Source of the DNA: an uncultured bacterium
GTDB lineage: Bacteria; Babelota; Babeliae; Babelales; RVW-14
Length of the DNA: 23,473 nucleotides
Assembly (NCBI GenBank): GCA_963759805.1
Contig: CAVXAT010000016.1
Location: 1 to 23,473 of the forward strand
Direction: 5' to 3'
Positions 2,785 to 23,473 of the stretch are shown in pieces; the stretch's first letter is position 1, and each line of letters starts with the position of its first letter. Made by a program: the position numbers and the translations under genes. The notes beneath the pieces were generated by a model. The model saw only the letters and a list, made by a program, of their open reading frames with translations, was not told where the DNA came from and searched no databases.

Positions 2785-2942
2785 ATTTCAAATTGCATGA
2801 ATAATGCTCTGCGCTTTGTTTTATTGAGCAGGGGGCTTTTGCAAGTTCTTTCTATCTTCTTTAAGCTTAAAATACTTAGTCTAGATGTTAGTGGTTCACT
2901 AGAGGTTATTTTGGGTATCTATTTTTTATGGAGGTTTTTATT

Positions 2943-4262
2943 ATGAAGTTTTCTGTAAAACGATTAATTTTGACAACATGTCTACTTGCTGCTTCGCTCA
3001 AGGTTAGCCCTATGGGGGTACCCGCTGATGCTGGTCTGACCAATGTTGACGTAAGCAAATTTTTTGGTGGTGCGCATTCTGCATCAGAATTGCAAACGCG
3101 CGTCGATGCAAATTTTGACAAGACAGGTTGGTTTTCTTTGTTTTGCACGGCAGGGCCTGTCGATGCAAAACTAAGAGAGGTTGCCGCATCTCAGGCTGAA
3201 ACGCAGGCGGCCATTGATGCATTAAAAGCAAATACAGCAATTTCTGAAGCTGCAAAATCTGCTGCAATTGGTGAGCTTGAACGACGCCAAGAATTTTTAT
3301 CGCAAGTTGGAAAGTGTCATGAAGGTTTGCGTGATGATTTAAGGCAGGCAAAACAGACGATTGCTGTTAATGCCGGTGAAATTGATCGTATTGCTGCGAT
3401 TGATAAGGGTGGTGTTGTTGTAGCCCGTGATACCAAGATTGCAAAAACGGTTAACCAGGCAATGATTGCTCCATTTGAGAGAGCCACAACGTGCTTTAAT
3501 CATGTTGTTACGGGGGATCCCCTTGCTCGACCTCAAGCAACTTTGGGAAAAGAGTTTGTTGATGGCAAAGCAGATCCTTATGTTGAAAGCAATAGACAAG
3601 TGGAACAAGTTGCCAGTGAATTGGATAGCAAAGCTGCTCGAGCCGGAGCAGAATTAGCGCAGCGAGAACTCACAGAAAAATGTAAAGTAAGCGGAGATTC
3701 TTCATGGGATTGTTGGGATAATCGTGTCAAGATGAAGGCTGCAGCAGCCACAGAATGGATTGCTGGTGGTTGGAAAGTATTAGGCCAGAATGTAGCGCCT
3801 AAACTTGAGGCTGCAAAGGCCATTACTTTGGCCGATGTTCGTAGCTATAAGGCCATTACTTTGGCCGATGTTCGTAGTTATGGAGCCGATAAATGGAAAG
3901 CTGTTCGTGACTATGGGATTTGTAATCATAAGCTGGAATGTACAGTGGCCAATCCGGAATGTACAGTGGACATTGATGGGCATGCATTTTGTGCTGATCC
4001 GCATTCATCAAGCCCATATGATAATCCAATGCAATACTACGCAATTCAAGGTGGTAAAATTGTTGGCGGCATAGCTCTTGCAGCAGTAGGTTTGTATGCT
4101 GCTTATAAGCTTGCAAAACTTGGTTGGAGGGGTGCATGCGCATTGAAAAATGCATTGTGGACTAACAGATCCAAGACTGCCAGGGCTGCTATTATATTAG
4201 CACTTGGAACTGCTGTTGCAGTTGCACCAAGTACGGCTATGGCTTATGGTTATATGCAATAA
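2943..4262 (+). CDS. Hypothetical secreted/membrane-anchored Ala-rich coiled-coil protein
   Basis: Track ORF is 2928..4262; ATG 2943 follows GGAGG. Signal-like N-terminus, coiled-coil-like middle, Cys-rich patch and two C-terminal hydrophobic segments. Confidence 0.8.
   Translation: MKFSVKRLILTTCLLAASLKVSPMGVPADAGLTNVDVSKFFGGAHSASELQTRVDANFDKTGWFSLFCTAGPVDAKLREVAASQAETQAAIDALKANTAISEAAKSAAIGELERRQEFLSQVGKCHEGLRDDLRQAKQTIAVNAGEIDRIAAIDKGGVVVARDTKIAKTVNQAMIAPFERATTCFNHVVTGDPLARPQATLGKEFVDGKADPYVESNRQVEQVASELDSKAARAGAELAQRELTEKCKVSGDSSWDCWDNRVKMKAAAATEWIAGGWKVLGQNVAPKLEAAKAITLADVRSYKAITLADVRSYGADKWKAVRDYGICNHKLECTVANPECTVDIDGHAFCADPHSSSPYDNPMQYYAIQGGKIVGGIALAAVGLYAAYKLAKLGWRGACALKNALWTNRSKTARAAIILALGTAVAVAPSTAMAYGYMQ
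3816..3881 (+). repeat. In-frame 33-bp tandem duplication (KAITLADVRSY x2)
   Basis: aaggccattactttggccgatgttcgtag(c/t)tat twice. A 21-bp-period ggaatgtacagtgg repeat follows at 3935-3969. Confidence 0.95.
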
Positions 4263-5423: not shown

Positions 5424-5657
5424 ATACCATTCTGTTGAATTAAAGTACCCAAGCTTGCCCGCTCCCAGCCGTCGCCTTCGCTTCGCTCATGGCTATGGCG
5501 GGCAGGCTGTGGTGAGTGTTTTTTGCAGGCCGCACCCTTCGATACGCGCACTGCGTGCGCACTCAGGGCGAGCGGCCAAAAAAAATGTACGTGGGCGTCG
5601 AAGCCTTGGCGAAGGCGGCTCGAACCATGCGGGCATAAGACTTACTTTGAATGGTAT
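5424..5657 (+). mobile_element. MITE-like palindromic element, copy A (234 bp)
   Basis: Terminal IR ataccattc (5424-5432) / gaatggtat (5649-5657). GC-rich multi-hairpin interior. Near-identical reverse-complement copies at 8566-8799 and from 23299. Confidence 0.88.
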
Positions 5658-6613
5658 TACTCCATTCTGATTACATTACTCTCAACTGCTTGCTGCTGCA
5701 TAAATGTCGAGTAGACTTTGCTGGCAAACGACCCAACATTTTCTGCAAAAGAGCGACTTTCCATACCATACTCTTCTTCGTCGCTTGAAGTCAGCATATG
5801 CAGAAGCCCTGAACCCTTTTTAGGGTGGATAAGTTTAACTTCAGTTTCGATTTTAGCCAGTTTCTTGATGACATCAATTCCATCCTGTAGTGTGCCAAGT
5901 TGGTCGATGAGCTTGAGTTCAAGAGCCTGTGTTCCGGTAAAGACTTTTCCATCTGCCCACTTTGAAAAATCCTTTTCGGATAAATTTCTACTTTGCGCAA
6001 CATCGGTTGCAAATTGAGTGTAGGTGTTATCAGATAATTTTTGTAAATATGTAATTTCGTCGCTTGAAGTGTCTTTAAGTGGGCTGCCTGCTGTTTTATA
6101 CTTACCGGACTGTATATAGTTGAATTTAATTTTCCATGAATTTAAAAGATCTTTTACGTTTGGAAGCTCAAGTATAACACCAACACTACCAATCAACGAT
6201 GATGGATTTGCGATGATTTTATCTGAAGATGCCGCAATGTAGTAAGCGCCTGATGCGCAGAGATTTTCTACGACAGTGACAACTGGTTTTTTCTTTTTAA
6301 ATTTCTTAAGTTCGGCAAAAATTGCTTGGGCTGAGCCGGGCATTCCTCCGGGTGAGTTGATTTTTAGAATCAAGCCTTTTATGTTGTCATCCTTTGAAAA
6401 AGCCTCAATTTTGTTAAGGTAATAACTTGAATCGTACAGAACGCCATCAATCTTGAGTAGGCCGACCTCCGTTTTGGGTCTTATTGCATCAACGATTGTT
6501 GTTTTAATGCTTGAAATTATTGTGGGAGCGATGCTTAAAAACAGAAGTACCATAAATAGATTTTTAATGTAGTAAAAAAAGGTGTCTGCTTTTTCATGTC
6601 GTGTGTTTTTCAT
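5657..6613 (-). CDS. sppA: Signal peptide peptidase SppA (S49, short type)
   Basis: INSPGG, CASGAYYIA, GSVGV, SGKYK, ADGKVFTGTQA and LIDQLG motifs; N-terminal TM segment. Confidence 0.95.
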   Translation of the reverse strand: MKNTRHEKADTFFYYIKNLFMVLLFLSIAPTIISSIKTTIVDAIRPKTEVGLLKIDGVLYDSSYYLNKIEAFSKDDNIKGLILKINSPGGMPGSAQAIFAELKKFKKKKPVVTVVENLCASGAYYIAASSDKIIANPSSLIGSVGVILELPNVKDLLNSWKIKFNYIQSGKYKTAGSPLKDTSSDEITYLQKLSDNTYTQFATDVAQSRNLSEKDFSKWADGKVFTGTQALELKLIDQLGTLQDGIDVIKKLAKIETEVKLIHPKKGSGLLHMLTSSDEEEYGMESRSFAENVGSFASKVYSTFMQQQAVESNVIRME

Positions 6614-7018: not shown

Positions 7019-7504
7019 TTATGCTGCCAGTAATGTTGCAGGTGCAGGGACTTCCTTGCTCCTGATATTTTCATGCTTGTGTTTAGGATTCTTAAAGTTT
7101 AAGGACATGGATTTATCGTGTTTATTGTAGAGTACTTCAACAACTTTGTCCGCAGGAATTGCATCATGAAGGTAGCATTCATGTACAAAGTCCGGTCTTT
7201 TGTGGTACTCATCATAATAAATCTTTGTTGTTGTTGAGATTGCATTTGATCCGGCAAGTGCATATGTGCAACGGATGGAACAAGGATGCCCTGATTGTTT
7301 TAAGCTAGATTTGATTTTTGCTGCGGCATCATTGATAATTGCCTGTTCATCACGAAGCTTTTTAAGTTTAAACTTTTGACATTCTTTACTAATGCCGTTG
7401 CGATTTTTGGCTTGGAGAGGCATCTCTTGCAGTGCCATTAAAAAAATAAATAAAAAGCTCAAACTACCTGAGAAAGCAATCTTATATAAAGTTAAATTTT
7501 TCAT
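7019..7504 (-). CDS. Hypothetical secreted protein (161 aa)
   Basis: GGAG RBS and signal-peptide-like N-terminus; no recognised domain. Confidence 0.7.
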   Translation of the reverse strand: MKNLTLYKIAFSGSLSFLFIFLMALQEMPLQAKNRNGISKECQKFKLKKLRDEQAIINDAAAKIKSSLKQSGHPCSIRCTYALAGSNAISTTTKIYYDEYHKRPDFVHECYLHDAIPADKVVEVLYNKHDKSMSLNFKNPKHKHENIRSKEVPAPATLLAA

Positions 7505-7681: not shown

Positions 7682-8560
7682 TCAAATCCAGCACCCAATC
7701 CACCGCTTTTGGCCTTGCATATCCTTATATAATGCGAATTTCTTGAATTTATAAGCTTTTAAAGTGGTTTCTACCGTTTTTTGTGCCGGTCCGATTTCCA
7801 TAACTATCTGCGGTACGGGGGTGATCTTGTCAAGACTCGTCTTGTTAAGACTTGTCTTATTAAGAATATGGGGTGATTCTTTAAATATTCTGTGATAAAA
7901 GTACATCCCCTCATCTTTTGCCACTAGTGCCTGATGATCTTCCCATTCCCTGACATCAGGACTTAGTTGGTCAAGTTCTTGCTTTGCTAAGTACGGAGGG
8001 TTGCTAACTATCAAATCGCATCTAAAATCATGAGGTAATTTCTGGTATAGGTCAGAGTGTATAAACTCTATATTTTCAATTTTATTATGTGCTTTGTTTT
8101 CCAGGCTTAGATTTATGGCCTGCGTGTTAAGGTCTATCCCAATGATTTTTGATTTGGTAAATGCCTTTGCAAGTGCAAGTCCGATGCAGCCGGATCCGCA
8201 ACATAGGTCGATAGCGGTGAATTTTGTGAAATTTGCAATTTTTAGCTGATTAATCAACCAACTCACCCACTCTTCAGTCTCCGGCCTGGGGATCAGGACT
8301 GGTGGTTTTACCAGTATCTCCAAATTACAAAATGGAACACTGCCCAGAATGTAAGCAAGTGGTTTGTGATACTTAACGCGATCTGTAATCCATTGCTCGA
8401 GTTGAGCCTGCTGCGTGTCAGAGATATGTAGCTCCGAATTTGTAAGCAGCCATGTTTTGCTTTTATTAGTTAGTTTTTCGAGTAGCCACCAAGCCTCTTG
8501 TTCATCCTCAAGCCGTGTGGCTACCGTTTGAATCAATTTTAAAACGTTGATTTTATACAT
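7682..8560 (-). CDS. prmC: Release factor glutamine N5-methyltransferase PrmC/HemK
   Basis: PLAYILG, VLIPRPETE, DLCCGSGCI, VSNPPY and MEIG motifs. Confidence 0.96.
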   Translation of the reverse strand: MYKINVLKLIQTVATRLEDEQEAWWLLEKLTNKSKTWLLTNSELHISDTQQAQLEQWITDRVKYHKPLAYILGSVPFCNLEILVKPPVLIPRPETEEWVSWLINQLKIANFTKFTAIDLCCGSGCIGLALAKAFTKSKIIGIDLNTQAINLSLENKAHNKIENIEFIHSDLYQKLPHDFRCDLIVSNPPYLAKQELDQLSPDVREWEDHQALVAKDEGMYFYHRIFKESPHILNKTSLNKTSLDKITPVPQIVMEIGPAQKTVETTLKAYKFKKFALYKDMQGQKRWIGCWI

Positions 8561-8565
8561 GAATT

Positions 8566-8799
8566 ATACCATTCGAAGTAAATTTATGCCCGCATGGTTC
8601 GAGCCGCCTTCGCCAAGGCTTCGACGCCCACGTACATTTTTTTTGGCCGCTCGCCCTGAGTGCCGAGCTTTGCGAGGCGTATCGAAGGGTGCGGCCTGCA
8701 AAAAATACTCACCACAGCCTGCCCGCCATAGCCATGAGCGAAGCGAAGGCGACGGCTGGGAGCGGGCAAATTGGGTACATTAATTGCGCAGAATGGAAT
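8566..8799 (-). mobile_element. MITE-like palindromic element, copy B (234 bp), inverted relative to copy A
   Basis: ataccattc (8566-8574) ... gaatggaat (8791-8799). Aligns end to end with the reverse complement of copy A, except for one replaced hairpin and scattered substitutions. Confidence 0.88.
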
Positions 8800-12106: not shown

Positions 12107-13147
12107 ATGGACATACTTTCGTTGCTCAAGCAGAGCATGGGGGCGGATGCATCAATGGTATGGATTTTGCTACTCTCATTTTTGTCGGGAGTGCTTATAA
12201 GTTTTACACCATGCATTTATCCAATGATTCCAATAACCATCGGAATCATGCAGACTCAGGCAACGCATTCATTCTGGCGTGGATTATTAACCGGATTTTT
12301 TTATGTTTTGGGATTAGCAACGGTTTATGCAACACTTGGTTTTATCTGTGCAACCACTTCGGTAATGTTTGGGCAGTGGACCTCAAACCCATGGTTTACG
12401 CTTTTTATTGTACTTTTGTTTTTGTATCTTGCTTTCTCTCTGTTTGGTTTTTATGAGATCACGATTCCGGCATTTTTCAAGTTCAAAACACAGGATGATC
12501 CTTCGATACGATTTGCTACGCAAATCACTCAGGATGAGCGGGAAGGGAGTAGGCGCGCTCGTGGTTCCTTCGACGGGCTCAGGATGAGCGGCTTACTTGC
12601 CTGGGCGCCGAAGCCTTGGCGAAGGCGGCTCGAACCATCGCCCATAGGGCGACGCGCCGTGGCTCAAGCAAAGCCTGCTAGCCGGCCATTTTTAAAAAGT
12701 TTTTTACTGGGGCTTTTCGCTGGTTCAGTTGCCTCCCCTTGCCTAACTCCTGCCTTGGCCATGCTTTTGGCATTGGTAGCAGAAAAAGGCAACCCCTTAC
12801 TTGGTTTCTTTGCACTGTTTCTCTTTGCATTTGGAATGGGTTTCTTATTGATATTTGTCGGAATGTTTTCAGCATCAATTAATGCATTCCCTCGTGCAGG
12901 TGAGTGGATGAATGAGGTTAAAAAGTTTTTTGGGTTTGTGATGCTTGCCGCTTGTGTTTATATGTCTCGAAATGTACTTTGGTTGCCGATTATTAAAGGC
13001 CTTTATGCTCTAGTTTGTGCAAGTGCCTCAATTTACTATTTTTACACGGGTTACTATTTTGAAACCGGATTGGGTAAAAAGATTAAATGGTTTTTGGGGC
13101 TATGTTTTGCTGTTATCACGGTATATTTGCTTGTAAAAGTTTTATGA
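12107..13147 (+). CDS. DsbD beta-domain / CcdA-like transmembrane thiol-disulfide electron transporter with an in-frame palindromic insertion
   Basis: FTPCIYPMIP and VASPC redox cysteines, PRAGEWMNEVKKFFG motif, multiple TM helices and AAGGAG RBS. No thioredoxin domain. Confidence 0.88.
   Translation: MDILSLLKQSMGADASMVWILLLSFLSGVLISFTPCIYPMIPITIGIMQTQATHSFWRGLLTGFFYVLGLATVYATLGFICATTSVMFGQWTSNPWFTLFIVLLFLYLAFSLFGFYEITIPAFFKFKTQDDPSIRFATQITQDEREGSRRARGSFDGLRMSGLLAWAPKPWRRRLEPSPIGRRAVAQAKPASRPFLKSFLLGLFAGSVASPCLTPALAMLLALVAEKGNPLLGFFALFLFAFGMGFLLIFVGMFSASINAFPRAGEWMNEVKKFFGFVMLAACVYMSRNVLWLPIIKGLYALVCASASIYYFYTGYYFETGLGKKIKWFLGLCFAVITVYLLVKVL
12497..12687 (+). repeat. GC-rich palindromic insert related to the MITE, in frame within the dsbD/ccdA-like gene
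   Basis: 12602-12638 is identical over 37 bp to the reverse complement of copy C. It also contains ccttcgatac-hairpin-actcagg and ccttcgacgggctcaggatgagcgg modules. Boundaries are approximate. Confidence 0.85.
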
Positions 13148-15022: not shown

Positions 15023-15044
15023 TTTTATATTTAATCTGTGCACA

Positions 15045-15078
15045 AAAAAGCTGGGTGTCTTTCAACACCCAGCTTTTT
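15045..15078. terminator. Bidirectional intrinsic terminator between convergent aspS and OMP-like gene 1
   Basis: Perfect stem aaaaagctgggtgt-ctttca-acacccagcttttt with A and T tails. Confidence 0.88.
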
Positions 15079-15083
15079 AACTA

Positions 15084-15137
15084 AACTTGTCGCGTCGTAG
15101 CCACGTTTAAGCTTTAGCGAAAACGGGCGAAGACGGA
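15084..15137. repeat. 54-bp palindromic module, identical to 16900-16953
   Basis: cgtc-gta-gcc-a-cgtt-taa-gct-tt-agc-gaa-aacg-ggc-gaa-gacg, directly abutting the stop codon. Confidence 0.85.
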
Positions 15138-16640
15138 TTAGAATGACAAGGAGAGCTTGCCCCATACCATCCAGTAGTTTGGTATGCTGTTCTCATTTGC
15201 CCAGTCATATTTTCCACCTACACCCAACAAGAGAGGATCTTTCCATTTCTTGAAGTGGTAGCCCAAACCGCCATAGATGCCGTTTGTGAATTGTGATGGA
15301 GTTTCTGCTTTCTCTATGTCAATGCTGTCGTTTGTGAGCCAATTTCCCTCAAGCAAAGGCGAGGAAGGGTTGCGATCAATGCCTGTAACATCGAATTCTA
15401 TTGGAGTCTCGTAATCATATTCATCCGCTGTCAACCAATCTCTTGCTGCTACTCCGAATGTATCGTGTGGAAGTGAGTGCTTGAGGCTTAGATCTTCATC
15501 TTCTCTGTAATACATATTGTAACCAAGGTCTGCACTGAATCCGCCATTGTTGTAAGCCAGTGCAAGGATACCATCAAATTGGCTGCCTGGGGTTACATTA
15601 ACGCCAAGTGGTGTCAATATGTTAACTGCAGGAATCAAGTCTACGTGTCCATCTTTGCCCAGCAAGACATATGGTGATGCATAACCCTTCAATTTTAGAG
15701 GTCTGTGCTCAGATGATTCGAACAGATAACGGTAGTTAGCTGCAAAGTTCAATTTGATATTTTGTTTGCCTTTGGTCCACAAGTTTGCATGTGCATCAAG
15801 TCCGCCACCAAATCCGAAGTGGGAGCCGTTGCCGTATATTGGTTCAAACATCTCTCTGCCGTTTGGCTTGTTGCCTGTTGGGATTGTTATTGCAAGGTTG
15901 ATACCGAAATGGTACTTATCTTTGTACAAGAACTTGTAACCAAGAATTACGTCGACGTCTGCAAACCCTGTCGCTGAATGTTCGTCTTTTATTAAACCAT
16001 AGTCAAGGGCAACTTGAGCGTCATTTGGAAATTCACCGTTGGTTGTCTGAAAATAATGACCGGTGAAGAACTCTGTTAACCAGGTTTCGTAATCTTCTGG
16101 TGTGTATCCTCCCTCAGAACCCTGAATACCCTCGACGTTCAACTCCATATCATTTTCTACGCGAACAACTGTTGTGTTTACCTTGAGGTAAAGACCCTTT
16201 AGAAGTTTGTCCATGTTTTGGTAGTAATCAAAACGTGCGCCGTATGATTTTGAGCTTGGATCTAATGATACAGTTGCGATTGCGCCTTCATCTCCACCTA
16301 GAGAACCGTGGAGTATATACCCAAGATCGAAATCATCCTTTTCTGTTGATTTTGTATTAGCGATAGGGTCGCCTTTTAATCTATATGTGCTGTCGCCGTT
16401 AATACCAAAGTAACTACCGAAATTACCGTTTGATTCCCCATAGAAACCGGATATTTGTAAATTTCCACCGAAACGGTGTTCCAACTTGAGTTGTGTTCTC
16501 TCATAGAATGTTGTGAGTTCCATTGGAAGATTTACGTTTGTACTACGTAAGTTCATGTATGTGTGTTCTGTGTGTGCCGAGATGTTATTTGCGCTTACTG
16601 CCAATGCAGCAAGCATTAGATATTTTATTGATTTATTCAT
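15138..16640 (-). CDS. Putative outer-membrane beta-barrel protein, paralog 1 (500 aa)
   Basis: Signal peptide, Gly/aromatic alternating strands and C-terminal WGKLSLSF beta-signal; GGAG...AAGG upstream. Confidence 0.8.
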   Translation of the reverse strand: MNKSIKYLMLAALAVSANNISAHTEHTYMNLRSTNVNLPMELTTFYERTQLKLEHRFGGNLQISGFYGESNGNFGSYFGINGDSTYRLKGDPIANTKSTEKDDFDLGYILHGSLGGDEGAIATVSLDPSSKSYGARFDYYQNMDKLLKGLYLKVNTTVVRVENDMELNVEGIQGSEGGYTPEDYETWLTEFFTGHYFQTTNGEFPNDAQVALDYGLIKDEHSATGFADVDVILGYKFLYKDKYHFGINLAITIPTGNKPNGREMFEPIYGNGSHFGFGGGLDAHANLWTKGKQNIKLNFAANYRYLFESSEHRPLKLKGYASPYVLLGKDGHVDLIPAVNILTPLGVNVTPGSQFDGILALAYNNGGFSADLGYNMYYREDEDLSLKHSLPHDTFGVAARDWLTADEYDYETPIEFDVTGIDRNPSSPLLEGNWLTNDSIDIEKAETPSQFTNGIYGGLGYHFKKWKDPLLLGVGGKYDWANENSIPNYWMVWGKLSLSF

Positions 16641-16838
16641 TTACCTTTTCTCCAAAAAAGTTGTTTAAACACTATTTAATGACTACGAATTAGATGCTTT
16701 TCTTTTGTTTTGCATTCTCCTTTCTTTGATTTAATAGATTATGTACTTGGCACCGACACATTCCTAACCGATGATAAAAAATTTTACATGAGTTTAGTAT
16801 AACATGCAAGCTATGCGTATACAAAAAAACTGGCACAA

Positions 16839-16872
16839 AAAAAGCTGGGTGTCTTTCAACACCCAGCTTTTT
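16839..16872 (-). terminator. Intrinsic terminator after OMP-like paralog 2, identical to 15045-15078
   Basis: aaaaagctgggtgt-ctttca-acacccagcttttt. Confidence 0.85.
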
Positions 16873-16899
16873 AACTAATTTATTTTTATTATAAATCAG

Positions 16900-16953
16900 A
16901 ACTTGTCGCGTCGTAGCCACGTTTAAGCTTTAGCGAAAACGGGCGAAGACGGA
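16900..16953. repeat. 54-bp palindromic module, second copy
   Basis: Identical to 15084-15137; abuts the stop of paralog 2. Confidence 0.85.
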
Positions 16954-18402
16954 TTAGAATGACAGGGAGAGTTTGCCCCATACCATCCAGGAGTTTGGTA
17001 TGCTGTTCTCATTTGCCCAATCATATTTTCCACCAATACCCATCAAGAAAGGATATTCCCATTTCTTGAAGTGGTAGCCCAAACCGCCGTAGATGCCGTT
17101 TGTGAGTTGTGATGGAGTTGCTGCTGCATCTTCATCAACGTCTTTTCTTGAGATCCAGGCAGTTTCCTCACCATCGAAGTCGATTGGGTTTGTACCGAAA
17201 GTATAGTTTTCTAAATTAGTTCTATAAAATACTGATGCTACACCAAATCTGTCTTCTTCAATTTTGCCTCTGAAGTCAACATCCTCTTCATCTCTGTAGT
17301 AAAGGTTGTAACCTAGGTCTGCACTGAATCCGCCGTTGTTATAAGCTAATGCCAAAATACCATCAAATTGGCTGCCTGGTGTTACATCAACACCATTGTG
17401 TGACAAAACATTAACTGCAGGTATCAATGGCGCATTTACAGTGGAGCTATCGCCCAAAAGAACGTAAGGGGATAGATAATCCTTCAACTTAAGAGGTCTG
17501 TGCTCAGATGCTTCGAACAGATAACGGTAGTTAGCTGCAAAGTTCAATTTGATGTTTTGTTCGTGTTTGGTCCACAGGTTTGCATGTGCATCAAGTCCGC
17601 CACCAAATCCGAAGTGGGAGCCGTTGCCGTATATTGGTTCAAACAGTAGTTTACCATCTGGTTCTTCGCCTGTTGGGATTGTGATTGCAATGTTGATACC
17701 GAAGTGGTACTTGTCTTTGTACAAGAACTTGTAACCAAGAATTACATCGATATCAGCAAGACCTGTTTCGTTGTGCTCGCCTTTAATTAAACCACGTTCA
17801 ACTTCTTCTTGTGCATTACCTGGATCTGTAGCATTTGTTTGTTCATATTTGCCGGTGAAAAATTTATAAAGGTTTGTTTGCATTGCTGAGTCGGAACTAT
17901 GTACGCCCAAATCCATATCATTTTCTACACAAACGATCGTTGTGTTTACCTTGAGGTAGAGACCCTTTAGAAGTTTGTCCATGTTCTGGTAGTAATCAAA
18001 ACGTGCGCCGTATGATTCGGTTTCTGGATTGTATGAAACTTTTGCTGGGGTATCTTCGATCTCATGAGCCCAATCGTGAATCAAATAACGTAAAACAGTG
18101 TCGGCTGTTGCTGGAGTTGCATCACGTTGTGCTGCTGTGCCTAGTATATATGTGCTGTCACCATTCATACCAAAATAGCTGCCGAAATTACCGTTTGATT
18201 CTCCGTAGAAACCAGATACTTGTAAATTTCCACCAAAACGGTGGTCCAACTTCATTTGTGTTCTCTCATAGAATGTTGTAAGTTCCATTGGAAGATTTAC
18301 ATTGGAGCTTTTCAAGTTCATATATGTGTGGTCTGAGTGTGCCGAGATGTTTGAACTTACTGCCATTGCAGCAAGCGCTAGATATTTTATTGATTTATTC
18401 AT
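16954..18402 (-). CDS. Putative outer-membrane beta-barrel protein, paralog 2 (482 aa)
   Basis: Long blocks identical to paralog 1 (e.g. EPIYGNGSHFGFGGGLDAHANLWTK), the same MNKSIKYL start and the same WGKLSLSF end. Confidence 0.8.
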   Translation of the reverse strand: MNKSIKYLALAAMAVSSNISAHSDHTYMNLKSSNVNLPMELTTFYERTQMKLDHRFGGNLQVSGFYGESNGNFGSYFGMNGDSTYILGTAAQRDATPATADTVLRYLIHDWAHEIEDTPAKVSYNPETESYGARFDYYQNMDKLLKGLYLKVNTTIVCVENDMDLGVHSSDSAMQTNLYKFFTGKYEQTNATDPGNAQEEVERGLIKGEHNETGLADIDVILGYKFLYKDKYHFGINIAITIPTGEEPDGKLLFEPIYGNGSHFGFGGGLDAHANLWTKHEQNIKLNFAANYRYLFEASEHRPLKLKDYLSPYVLLGDSSTVNAPLIPAVNVLSHNGVDVTPGSQFDGILALAYNNGGFSADLGYNLYYRDEEDVDFRGKIEEDRFGVASVFYRTNLENYTFGTNPIDFDGEETAWISRKDVDEDAAATPSQLTNGIYGGLGYHFKKWEYPFLMGIGGKYDWANENSIPNSWMVWGKLSLSF

Positions 18403-19069
18403 TTACTTTTTCTCCGAAAATGCTGTGTAATATTATATTAAGGACTACGTTTTTAAATATTTACGACACCTGAGCCGTAAATATTTAAGCATCAACAACA
18501 TCGAATTAGAAGATTTTCTTTGTTATCGCGCCCTCCTTTCTTTGAATTAATAGATCGCGTGCTTGACACCGACACCGCCATCACTATCATAATTTAATGT
18601 GTTGAATCTATATGATGCTAAGGTGCTCCTCTTCACGTGAACTTGGCGTACTACTCATTGATGCTGATATTCTACGTGGTATTTACTTGCGTACCAAAGC
18701 CCACCTTGACGTTGATAGATTAATCGTGTTTTTAAAAGATATCAAGTATTTTTTTGTTAGCCTGTTAATAGCTTTTTATTTTCACACAAATAATTTATTG
18801 TGTGAATGATAACCATATTTAAAATATCTGTTTCGAGGCATTTATGTTTATCACTTTTGTTAATTACTTTTCCAGTCTAAAATACAAGATACTGGTTTTG
18901 TAAACAAAATGATTAAAAAAAATGTTTTGCCTTTATTTAAAAGGGTTTTTGAGTTTTAGTTTTCTGATTTTTGAAGATAACCCCAATGGATATTTTCGGT
19001 TATTTTTGATTTTGTCCCAAAACTATAAAAAATTTTTATGGGATCAATGAAGAACTCAATAAAATAAAA

Positions 19070-23280: not shown

Positions 23281-23298
23281 TTTTTTCTTTCGGGGGTA

Positions 23299-23473
23299 AT
23301 ACCATTCAAAGTAAGTCTTATGCCCGCATGGTTCGAGCCGCCTTCGCCAAGGCTTCGGCGCCCAAGTACGTTTTTTTTGGCCGCTCGCCCTGAGTGCGCA
23401 CGCAGTGCGCGTATCGAAGGGTGCGGCCTGCAAAAAACACTTCCAGCCTCCGCGTAAAGCTACGGCGGACGCA
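23299..23473 (-). mobile_element. MITE-like palindromic element, copy C (truncated by the window end)
   Basis: Starts ataccattc. Nearly identical to the reverse complement of copy A up to about 23441, then carries a different hairpin module. Confidence 0.85.

Follow-up and report, generated by a model that had tools for sequence, protein, structure and literature searches.

The closest described counterpart of the locus studied here is the Ssn system, described only in 2025 and presented as the first site-specific endonucleases acting on single-stranded DNA (ssDNA) only. According to the available part of that study, Ssn proteins consist of a single GIY-YIG domain (cd10448) and cut only ssDNA, at a site on one strand that lies a few bases upstream of the NTS/SRM hairpin, which carries directional tags (Chenal et al. 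2025, Nat Commun, PMC11893778). The repeats were catalogued there by one degenerate pattern, and the ssn genes are flanked by them on at least one side in 71% of cases and on both sides in 42%. The four SRM oligonucleotides tested all have the form (C/T)GTCAT-stem-loop-stem-ATC. In the SsnA substrate the identity of the loop was dispensable and extensions at the loop position were tolerated, and activity of the N. meningitidis enzyme was abolished by a changed stem even though the hairpin was preserved (PMC11893778). In the available part of the paper, the two Dependentiae genomes included had 0-1 SRM and no ssnA homolog.

The window analysed here is the whole 23,473-nt stretch of contig CAVXAT010000016.1. 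In this window, the pattern CCTTCGATAC-N(5-35)-ACTCAGG gave four exact matches (copies A, B and C and the long-form unit in the list below). In 100 dinucleotide-preserving shuffles of the window the mean number of matches was 0.00, and four matches were reached in none. The features are as follows.

5455..5663, plus strand: composite element F1, copy A, an inner unit inside an opposite-strand outer unit
GGTGAGT at 5511-5517, and GTA at 5587-5589 with TCGAACC at 5620-5626, opposite strand: outer unit of F1 copy A, GG/CC scaffold allele
5528..5577, plus strand: copy A, entire inner unit, with closing stem GGCCGC (5528-5533) and GCGGCC (5572-5577), junction AC...GCGA, tags and X
5536..5567, plus strand: copy A, with 5′ tag CCTTCGATAC (5536-5545), X GCGCAC-TGC-GTGCGC (5546-5560) and 3′ tag ACTCAGG (5561-5567)
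8566..8783, minus strand: composite element F1, copy B; with copy A, about 3 kb distant, it forms an inverted repeat with 99-100% identity except in X
8655..8688, minus strand: copy B, tags as in copy A, X GCCTCGC-AAA-GCTCGGC (8662-8678)
12488..12690, plus strand: in-frame GC-rich repeat array of about 66 codons (limits approximate), interrupting the DsbD_TM domain of ORF 12107-13147
12500..12533, plus strand: long-form unit in the DsbD_TM gene, X GATTTGC-TAC-GCAAATC (12510-12526), junction AT...ATGA
12567..12583, plus strand: short-form (X-less) unit CCTTCGACGGGCTCAGG, with ATGAGCGG directly after it
23293..23441, minus strand: composite element F1, copy C, with a differing left arm, at the window end
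23389..23420, minus strand: copy C, tags and X both as in copy A

The sequence-only reading of this stretch had claimed that one slot holds three different hairpins, here called X, and the four matches bore this out, with the sequences it gave for copies A and C, copy B and the dsbD copy. The cassette-less form that it had placed at about 12567-12583 was also present. Its interval for copy A, 5536..5569, began at the right base and ended 2 nt beyond the 3′ tag. The flanks, which it had described as identical, are identical in copies A, B and C; the dsbD copy has only the 17 tag bases in common with them, and its closing junction is AT...ATGA versus AC...GCGA in the other three. The dsbD copy is a member of a different unit family that has only the tags in common. 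The stem of copy B is imperfect, with two pyrimidine-pyrimidine appositions in its middle. There is no complementarity between the tags CCTTCGATAC and ACTCAGG, and the hairpin lies between directional, non-palindromic flanks.

We propose that scaffold and hairpin together are one repeating unit, that this hairpin repeat is dispersed and directional, and that its partner is a gene for a small nuclease with a single GIY-YIG domain; we put the probability of this reading at about 0.68. By analogy, repeat and gene probably work like an Ssn/SRM pair with a different repeat motif, as a member of that kind.

The sequence-only reading had also called for a genome-wide extraction of scaffold matches. 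In the genome holding the window (contig C16 of G000; assembly 1.5 Mb, 38% GC), this gave 30 long-form slots with 13 unique X, and about 18 short forms. A MAFFT alignment of all 30 units with their flanks was uninformative. The exact scaffold was found in 97 of 261 Dependentiae genomes, in about 1426 copies, and a reversed control pattern gave no match in any of the 261. In a scan of one genome per species, at least 126 stretches from many phyla carried the scaffold; the chance expectation for so short a pattern in that collection is about two thousand, and the count alone proves nothing. Most of these cross-phylum instances are real, because among the matches listed 105 of 158 instances have a hairpin and 98 have the 3′ motif RYGA (66 have both), while only 21 have neither. 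The same 17 tag bases thus occur in many other phyla, the hosts among the matches listed being Alpha-, Beta- and Gammaproteobacteria, Chloroflexi, Actinobacteria, Cloacimonadota, Bacteroidota, Acidobacteria and others. The composition of X tracks that of the host: its GC fraction is 0.36 in the Dependentiae loci versus 0.67 elsewhere (among the matches listed), and the tags are unchanged.

From 232 unique X collected, 188 had sufficient length for scoring. Most X proved to be structured, as 67% of 169 unique X had at least four perfect outer pairs, compared with 3.5% of shuffles. In the 188 scorable X, stem pairs 1-6 were Watson-Crick in 78-98% of cases versus 28-34% (maximum 43%) with shuffled partners; the X sequences are related, so that these percentages are not probabilities, and the stem register was picked per sequence among four offsets, which favours pair 1. 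All four pair types were found at each of the first six stem positions. This partner-shuffle test upheld the earlier claim that the hairpin is kept while the sequence of its stem changes. Covariation was observed in the scaffold as well. In the genome holding the window CCTTCGA..CTCAGG occurs 51 times and GGTTCGA..CTCACC 36 times, and neither of the mixed forms CC..CC and GG..GG is found more than 3 times. The closing pair alternates between C-G (AC..GCGA) and T-A (AT..AYGA). A further GG..TC scaffold class was present 18 times in the same genome.

An anatomy can be proposed for the unit. As single-stranded DNA the unit would form a coaxial hairpin with a variable outer stem and a conserved junction. 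Inside it, a short conserved helix would be built from CCT/AGG and one covarying pair, with two fixed non-Watson-Crick appositions. The tip would be either a 4-nt loop in the short form or TAC-X-(T)A in the long form, in which X is a further hairpin. Readings of the conserved bases as a hammerhead, K-turn or T-loop were dropped after inspection by eye, since the core nucleotides or bulges that these need are absent.

A second Dependentiae genome (G255) carries 93 long and 20 short units, and close copies within one of its stem families differ by paired changes and at unpaired positions. Its contig C1 (loci L189-L248 and L275-L291) contains 25 doublets of units in (-,+) order about 45 nt apart, versus 2 in (+,-) order and none on the same strand. 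In these doublets the stem of one member is invariant (ATTTTTTG-AAGA-CAAAAAAC, about 25 copies), the stem of its partner differs in nearly every copy by paired changes, and both purine-rich loops lie on the same physical strand. Because one stem is invariant in about 25 copies, some stems may be read for sequence. On the complete 1.52 Mb contig of this genome, a bias of units between the replication strands was not significant (frozen-stem units 16:7 versus 7:9, p 0.19; all units p 0.7).

A strong asymmetry between the two strands of the unit was observed. In the following, the strand on which the tags are written above is called the written strand, and the folding strand would be its complement. 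Among the unique X, 75 of 103 triloops are C-TNC-G on the written strand, which is C-GNA-G on the complement, and GNA loops on the written strand numbered 3. The motif GCGNAGC is described, in the available parts of two papers, as an exceptionally stable DNA mini-hairpin (PMC13037366, PMC3201870), so that the complement of most X tips resembles the mini-hairpins d(GCGNAGC) and d(GCGNNAGC); the shortest X (GCTTCGCT) includes the complement of GCGAAGC. These mini-hairpins differ from the repeat in being a motif of physical chemistry and not a genetic element. When the units were folded as ssDNA, the complement was the better strand in 176 of 228 and the written strand in 45; the difference had a median of 0.7 kcal/mol. 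The complement also folded better in all three window units; for the unit of copy A (5528..5577) it reached -17.3 kcal/mol (z -2.87), compared with -14.3 kcal/mol (z -1.57) for the given strand. Stem mismatches on the written strand were C.T/T.C in about 58 cases, A.C/C.A in 19 and G.T/T.G in 3; on the complement, C.T and A.C become G.A and G.T, the milder kinds.

Covariation of this strength, in X as well as in the scaffold, would also be expected of a structured RNA, such as a cis-regulatory element, a small RNA or a ribozyme, with X as a variable peripheral helix selected for RNA folding. Functional RNAs typically combine conserved junctions with variable helices, and the strand asymmetry does imply that a single strand matters. 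However, G.T appositions are nearly missing on the written strand, although RNA helices usually tolerate G.U, and the favoured loops are of the DNA mini-hairpin type C-GNA-G. Rfam gave no match at the gathering score for the whole window and none at E≤1 for positions 5430-5680. Furthermore, the units occur in both orientations, including the (-,+) doublets (25 versus 2 and 0), and they lie in frame inside coding regions and in inverted pairs around the nuclease gene described below. The known relatives of the system act on ssDNA and not on RNA, according to the available part of the Ssn study (PMC11893778). We therefore consider an RNA highly improbable. Since G.T is nearly absent from the written strand and the loops are of DNA type, the loops and the fold energies most likely reflect strand-specific ssDNA rather than RNA. 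The sequence-only reading was right about a kept structure, whose most likely form is an ssDNA hairpin tied to a GIY-YIG nuclease and not an RNA.

A terminator was ruled out separately for F1, in which a T-run lies upstream and an A-run downstream of the hairpin on either strand.

An association of the repeat with a gene was observed at several levels. The protein P0001 has 97 amino acids, its sole Pfam match is PF01541 (6.9e-17, residues 4-76), and the solved proteins nearest to it belong to UPF0213 and have 96-107 amino acids; no NCBIfam model matched it. The genome holding the window has two copies of its gene, and at both of them units lie within 100 bp on each side. In 30 loci of the phylum that were fetched for their ssn-like gene, units were found within 300 bp upstream in 18, downstream in 18 and on both sides in 16. 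The bracketing is oriented: in 15 of these 16 loci the unit upstream of the gene lies on the opposite strand and the one downstream shares the strand of the gene. The bracketing units are mostly 13-58 bp from the gene, and most are the sole units within 3.3 kb. Fourteen of the 30 loci are not bracketed on both sides by recognised units, and 10 of these have no unit within 300 bp on either side.

The bracketing pairs are short/short in 6 of 16 loci and long/long in 10 of 16. Short-form units also flank the nuclease gene, which makes X an optional addition to the tip. On the two sides of a gene, the X are the same in two loci (L171 and L159) and nearly so in a third (L187), and they differ in four others (L165, L177, L180 and L183).

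Across the phylum, a homolog of P0001 (E≤1e-8) was present in 88 of 261 genomes. By hand count, it occurred in 59 of the 97 scaffold-positive genomes versus 29 of the 164 scaffold-negative ones, and in 37 of the 43 genomes with 10 or more copies; as the genomes are related, these counts carry no p-value. No homolog at E≤1e-8 was found in 38 of the 97 scaffold-positive genomes, including three with high copy numbers (G054 with 34, G079 with 51 and G098 with 27). Three further small GIY-YIG matches of another type are present in the genome holding the window (C1:132943, C18:49169 and C5:3782). None of the three has units on both sides, and the last has a short-form unit 563 bp upstream.

The doublets recall another class of repeats. 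REP, BIME and REPIN elements, which go with RAYT enzymes of the Y1 (HUH) type, are likewise short tagged hairpins found as inverted doublets, follow a logic of ssDNA hairpin recognition, and have one associated single-copy enzyme gene flanked by repeats. The repeat could thus be REP/REPIN-like or of the IS200/IS605 type, moved by a Y1 transposase that reads an ssDNA hairpin and a short tag, and the GIY-YIG gene would then be a passenger. A conserved tag beside a variable hairpin is the logic of REP sequences, as the available part of the Ssn study has it (PMC11893778), and the genome holding the window does contain five Y1_Tnp (PF01797) genes in addition to the REPIN-like doublet architecture. 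However, the Y1_Tnp genes lie away from the units: none of the five has a unit within 1 kb, as against both P0001-type genes, and GIY-YIG loci are bracketed in 16 of 30 cases across the phylum. The enzyme is GIY-YIG and not HUH, and the GTAG tag is missing. For these reasons movement by a Y1 transposase is regarded as very unlikely. The five Y1_Tnp genes, of IS200/IS605 or RAYT type, are at C4:113564, C11:76599, C8:141891, C14:18809 and C1:154902.

The pairing with a GIY-YIG gene can be compared point by point with the Ssn/SRM system. In both, hairpin repeats bracket a single-domain GIY-YIG gene of about 95 amino acids, genomes with the gene carry tens to hundreds of dispersed repeat copies, and copy number goes with the gene. 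In both, the hairpin lies between non-palindromic directional tags with an unconstrained loop, and the stems vary between lineages while the tags persist. Loops starting with a purine on one strand are also common to the two (GAAA/GCAG in NTS, in the available part of the study, and GNA here), and the optional X agrees with the loop tolerance reported for SsnA in the same part (PMC11893778).

The two systems differ in their tags, which are TTCGATAC...ACTCAGG or the complement here and (C/T)GTCAT...ATC there (in short, CGATAC / ACTCAGG versus GTCAT / ATC). Many stems occur per genome here (13 unique X in the 30 copies of the genome holding the window), whereas the NTS stem is uniform. The units described here have a conserved basal helix with fixed mismatches beneath an optional apical hairpin, and they nest recursively. 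The Dependentiae are effectively missing from the Ssn study, and our repeat is known from sequence whereas Ssn is known from biochemistry. The stem dependence of the meningococcal enzyme argues against a freely variable stem, if the enzyme here behaves alike.

The published SRM pattern HGTCWY..RNCYNB gave two matches in the genome holding the window, compared with 1-3 in ten block shuffles, and neither match is a unit. The repeat thus escapes the SRM pattern, yet the same pairing of gene and repeat is found in a phylum where the Ssn study found none. In 12 of the 14 supplementary files of that study, the tag words were found only as chance matches in two primers (PMC11893778). Full-text literature searches with the core DNA words of both strands and with two hand-translated motif peptide words found no paper. 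Among the matches listed, searches on GIY-YIG enzymes with mobile intergenic palindromic repeats returned only organelle or unrelated work, and searches on palindromic repeats in Dependentiae returned nothing on the repeat.

If the analogy holds, we infer that the GIY-YIG protein recognizes and cleaves the unit as ssDNA. The tags and the junction would be conserved because they are recognized. The tip would not be read for sequence, and it may change, lengthen or take up nested copies as long as it is still paired and holds the basal helix.

Tips that change are best seen in the composite element F1. Its inner unit occupies the slot of an outer unit, which is on the opposite strand and has the GG/CC allele. 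In copy A the outer slot contains a T-run/A-run stem and the inner unit (partly by direct reading of the sequence), and both arms carry extra GC-rich modules (about 5469-5508 and 5590-5619). Between copies A and B, identity is 99% over 93 nt on one side of X and 100% over 80 nt on the other. The genome has ten F1 copies; the 15-nt A stem is present in four of them, and B-type stems with the loops AAA, GGC and AAC are present in six. In the sister genome (G149), only B-type stems (loops AAA, ATA and AGA) were seen in the three pattern-recognised F1 centres among six BLAST matches. Copy B has the long arms of the A group, yet it carries the B stem.

Because unrelated stem-loops sit in otherwise 99-100% identical elements, the difference between copies A and C and copy B is a recent outright swap of a 17-nt stem-loop for an unrelated one of 15 nt, and not gradual drift. 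In the simplest history, a short F1 with the B stem would have given a long F1 with the B stem, whose tip was then replaced and amplified to four copies. The B stem would be the older F1 stem, and copies A and C would descend from one recent replacement of the whole tip. The three combinations seen in F1 fit such a simple series of events without recombination. No donor of the A stem was found. An origin of the A-type stem by a simple hairpin flip was ruled out, as swapping the arms of the related GCGTGC-TTC-GCACGC stem does not give its arms. Exchange of modules between families is plausible, because a near-identical B stem, with one base different, is present in an unrelated doublet family.

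The sequence-only reading had attributed the changing stems to selection on structure or module exchange rather than drift. A kept structure and the outright replacement between copies A and C and copy B agree with it, but elsewhere much of the diversity of X does look like drift under a pairing constraint, because the GC content of X tracks the host and close copies differ by paired changes.

Nesting is not confined to F1. At position 426793 of G255, the X of one unit has a complete short unit in its loop. Two-tier hairpins are common among the X, and the sphingomonad X consist of core-like copies of the short core.

Replacement of tips and nested growth are also what would be expected of selfish palindromic DNA of a generic kind, similar to MITEs or RPEs and lacking an enzyme of its own. 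Its arms would be kept matched by template switching in quasi-palindromes or by repair of breaks at the centre, and its tags would be kept through recent common descent and horizontal spread. The loops of otherwise identical F1 copies are hypervariable (AAA, GGC, AAC, ATA and AGA), as such a process would have it, and insertion in frame within a gene, as in Rickettsia palindromic elements, points the same way. However, a symmetric process on double-stranded DNA leaves the strong strand asymmetry in loops, mismatches and fold energies unexplained. Selfish DNA also does not explain 17 invariant tag bases in many phyla beside an X that drifts to the composition of the host, nor the oriented bracketing of a nuclease gene. 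We thus take selfish palindromes without an enzyme to be improbable, and keep to a repeat that belongs with the GIY-YIG gene.

Under this reading, how tips get replaced can also be inferred. The nuclease might read only the approximately 17 bases of the tags together with the hairpin's geometry, leaving the stem a free field and making the tip a preferred landing place for copies. The unit would then be a natural, programmable module for ssDNA recognition, growing as units nest recursively in the loops of units on either strand, and the replaced tips would be the footprint of nuclease-triggered repair. We offer this extension tentatively and hold it to be rather unlikely. The repeat also amounts to a natural mutagenesis series, with hundreds of stems on constant tags in short and long forms, which predicts the parts of the substrate that are read and the strand that is cut. 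Such a series bears on the spread of repeats, on in-frame sites in the genes of reduced intracellular bacteria and on the design of ssDNA tools.

Rickettsia palindromic elements (RPE) sit in frame inside protein genes. In layout, the array in the DsbD_TM gene is alike, being a palindromic repeat in frame within a protein gene of an AT-rich intracellular bacterium. The translation of ORF 12107-13147 continues through the array (...KTQDDPSIRFATQITQDEREGS...SFDGLRMSG...), and its DsbD_TM domain (PF02683, 3.7e-45) was found as two stretches. The RPE and SRM classes may overlap, because Rickettsia felis is among the genomes used to define SRM and Rickettsia is among the SRM-rich taxa in the available part of the Ssn study (PMC11893778).

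Several other features of the window were observed. A distinct GC-rich module, GGGCG(T/C)CGAAGCCTTGGCGAAGGCGGCTCGAACC, with the hairpin GCCTT-GGCG-AAGGC, occurs at 5590-5619, 12602-12638, 8594-8630 and 23328-23371; it lies in the dsbD array and, in F1, inside the 3′ tag of the outer unit. With its CGTC-hairpin-CTCG layout it comes closer to the published SRM form, but it fails the SRM pattern at two positions. The F1 copies A and B (5455-5663 and 8566-8783) bracket about 3 kb as inverted repeats, and the stretch between them could be an invertible or co-mobilised segment; it carries, on the minus strand, the gene for an S49 peptidase (5657-6613), an unassigned ORF at 7019-7504 and the gene for a PrmC-like methyltransferase (7682-8560). 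Two paralogous segments, each about 1.8 kb long, lie in tandem at 15044-18575 and are 75-89% identical (ORFs 15138-16640 and 16954-18402), and each begins with an identical 41-nt hairpin with flanking A/T runs (15044-15084 and 16838-16878). At 3816-3881, a 33-nt tandem duplication in perfect register (97% identical) adds 11 codons to ORF 2928-4262.
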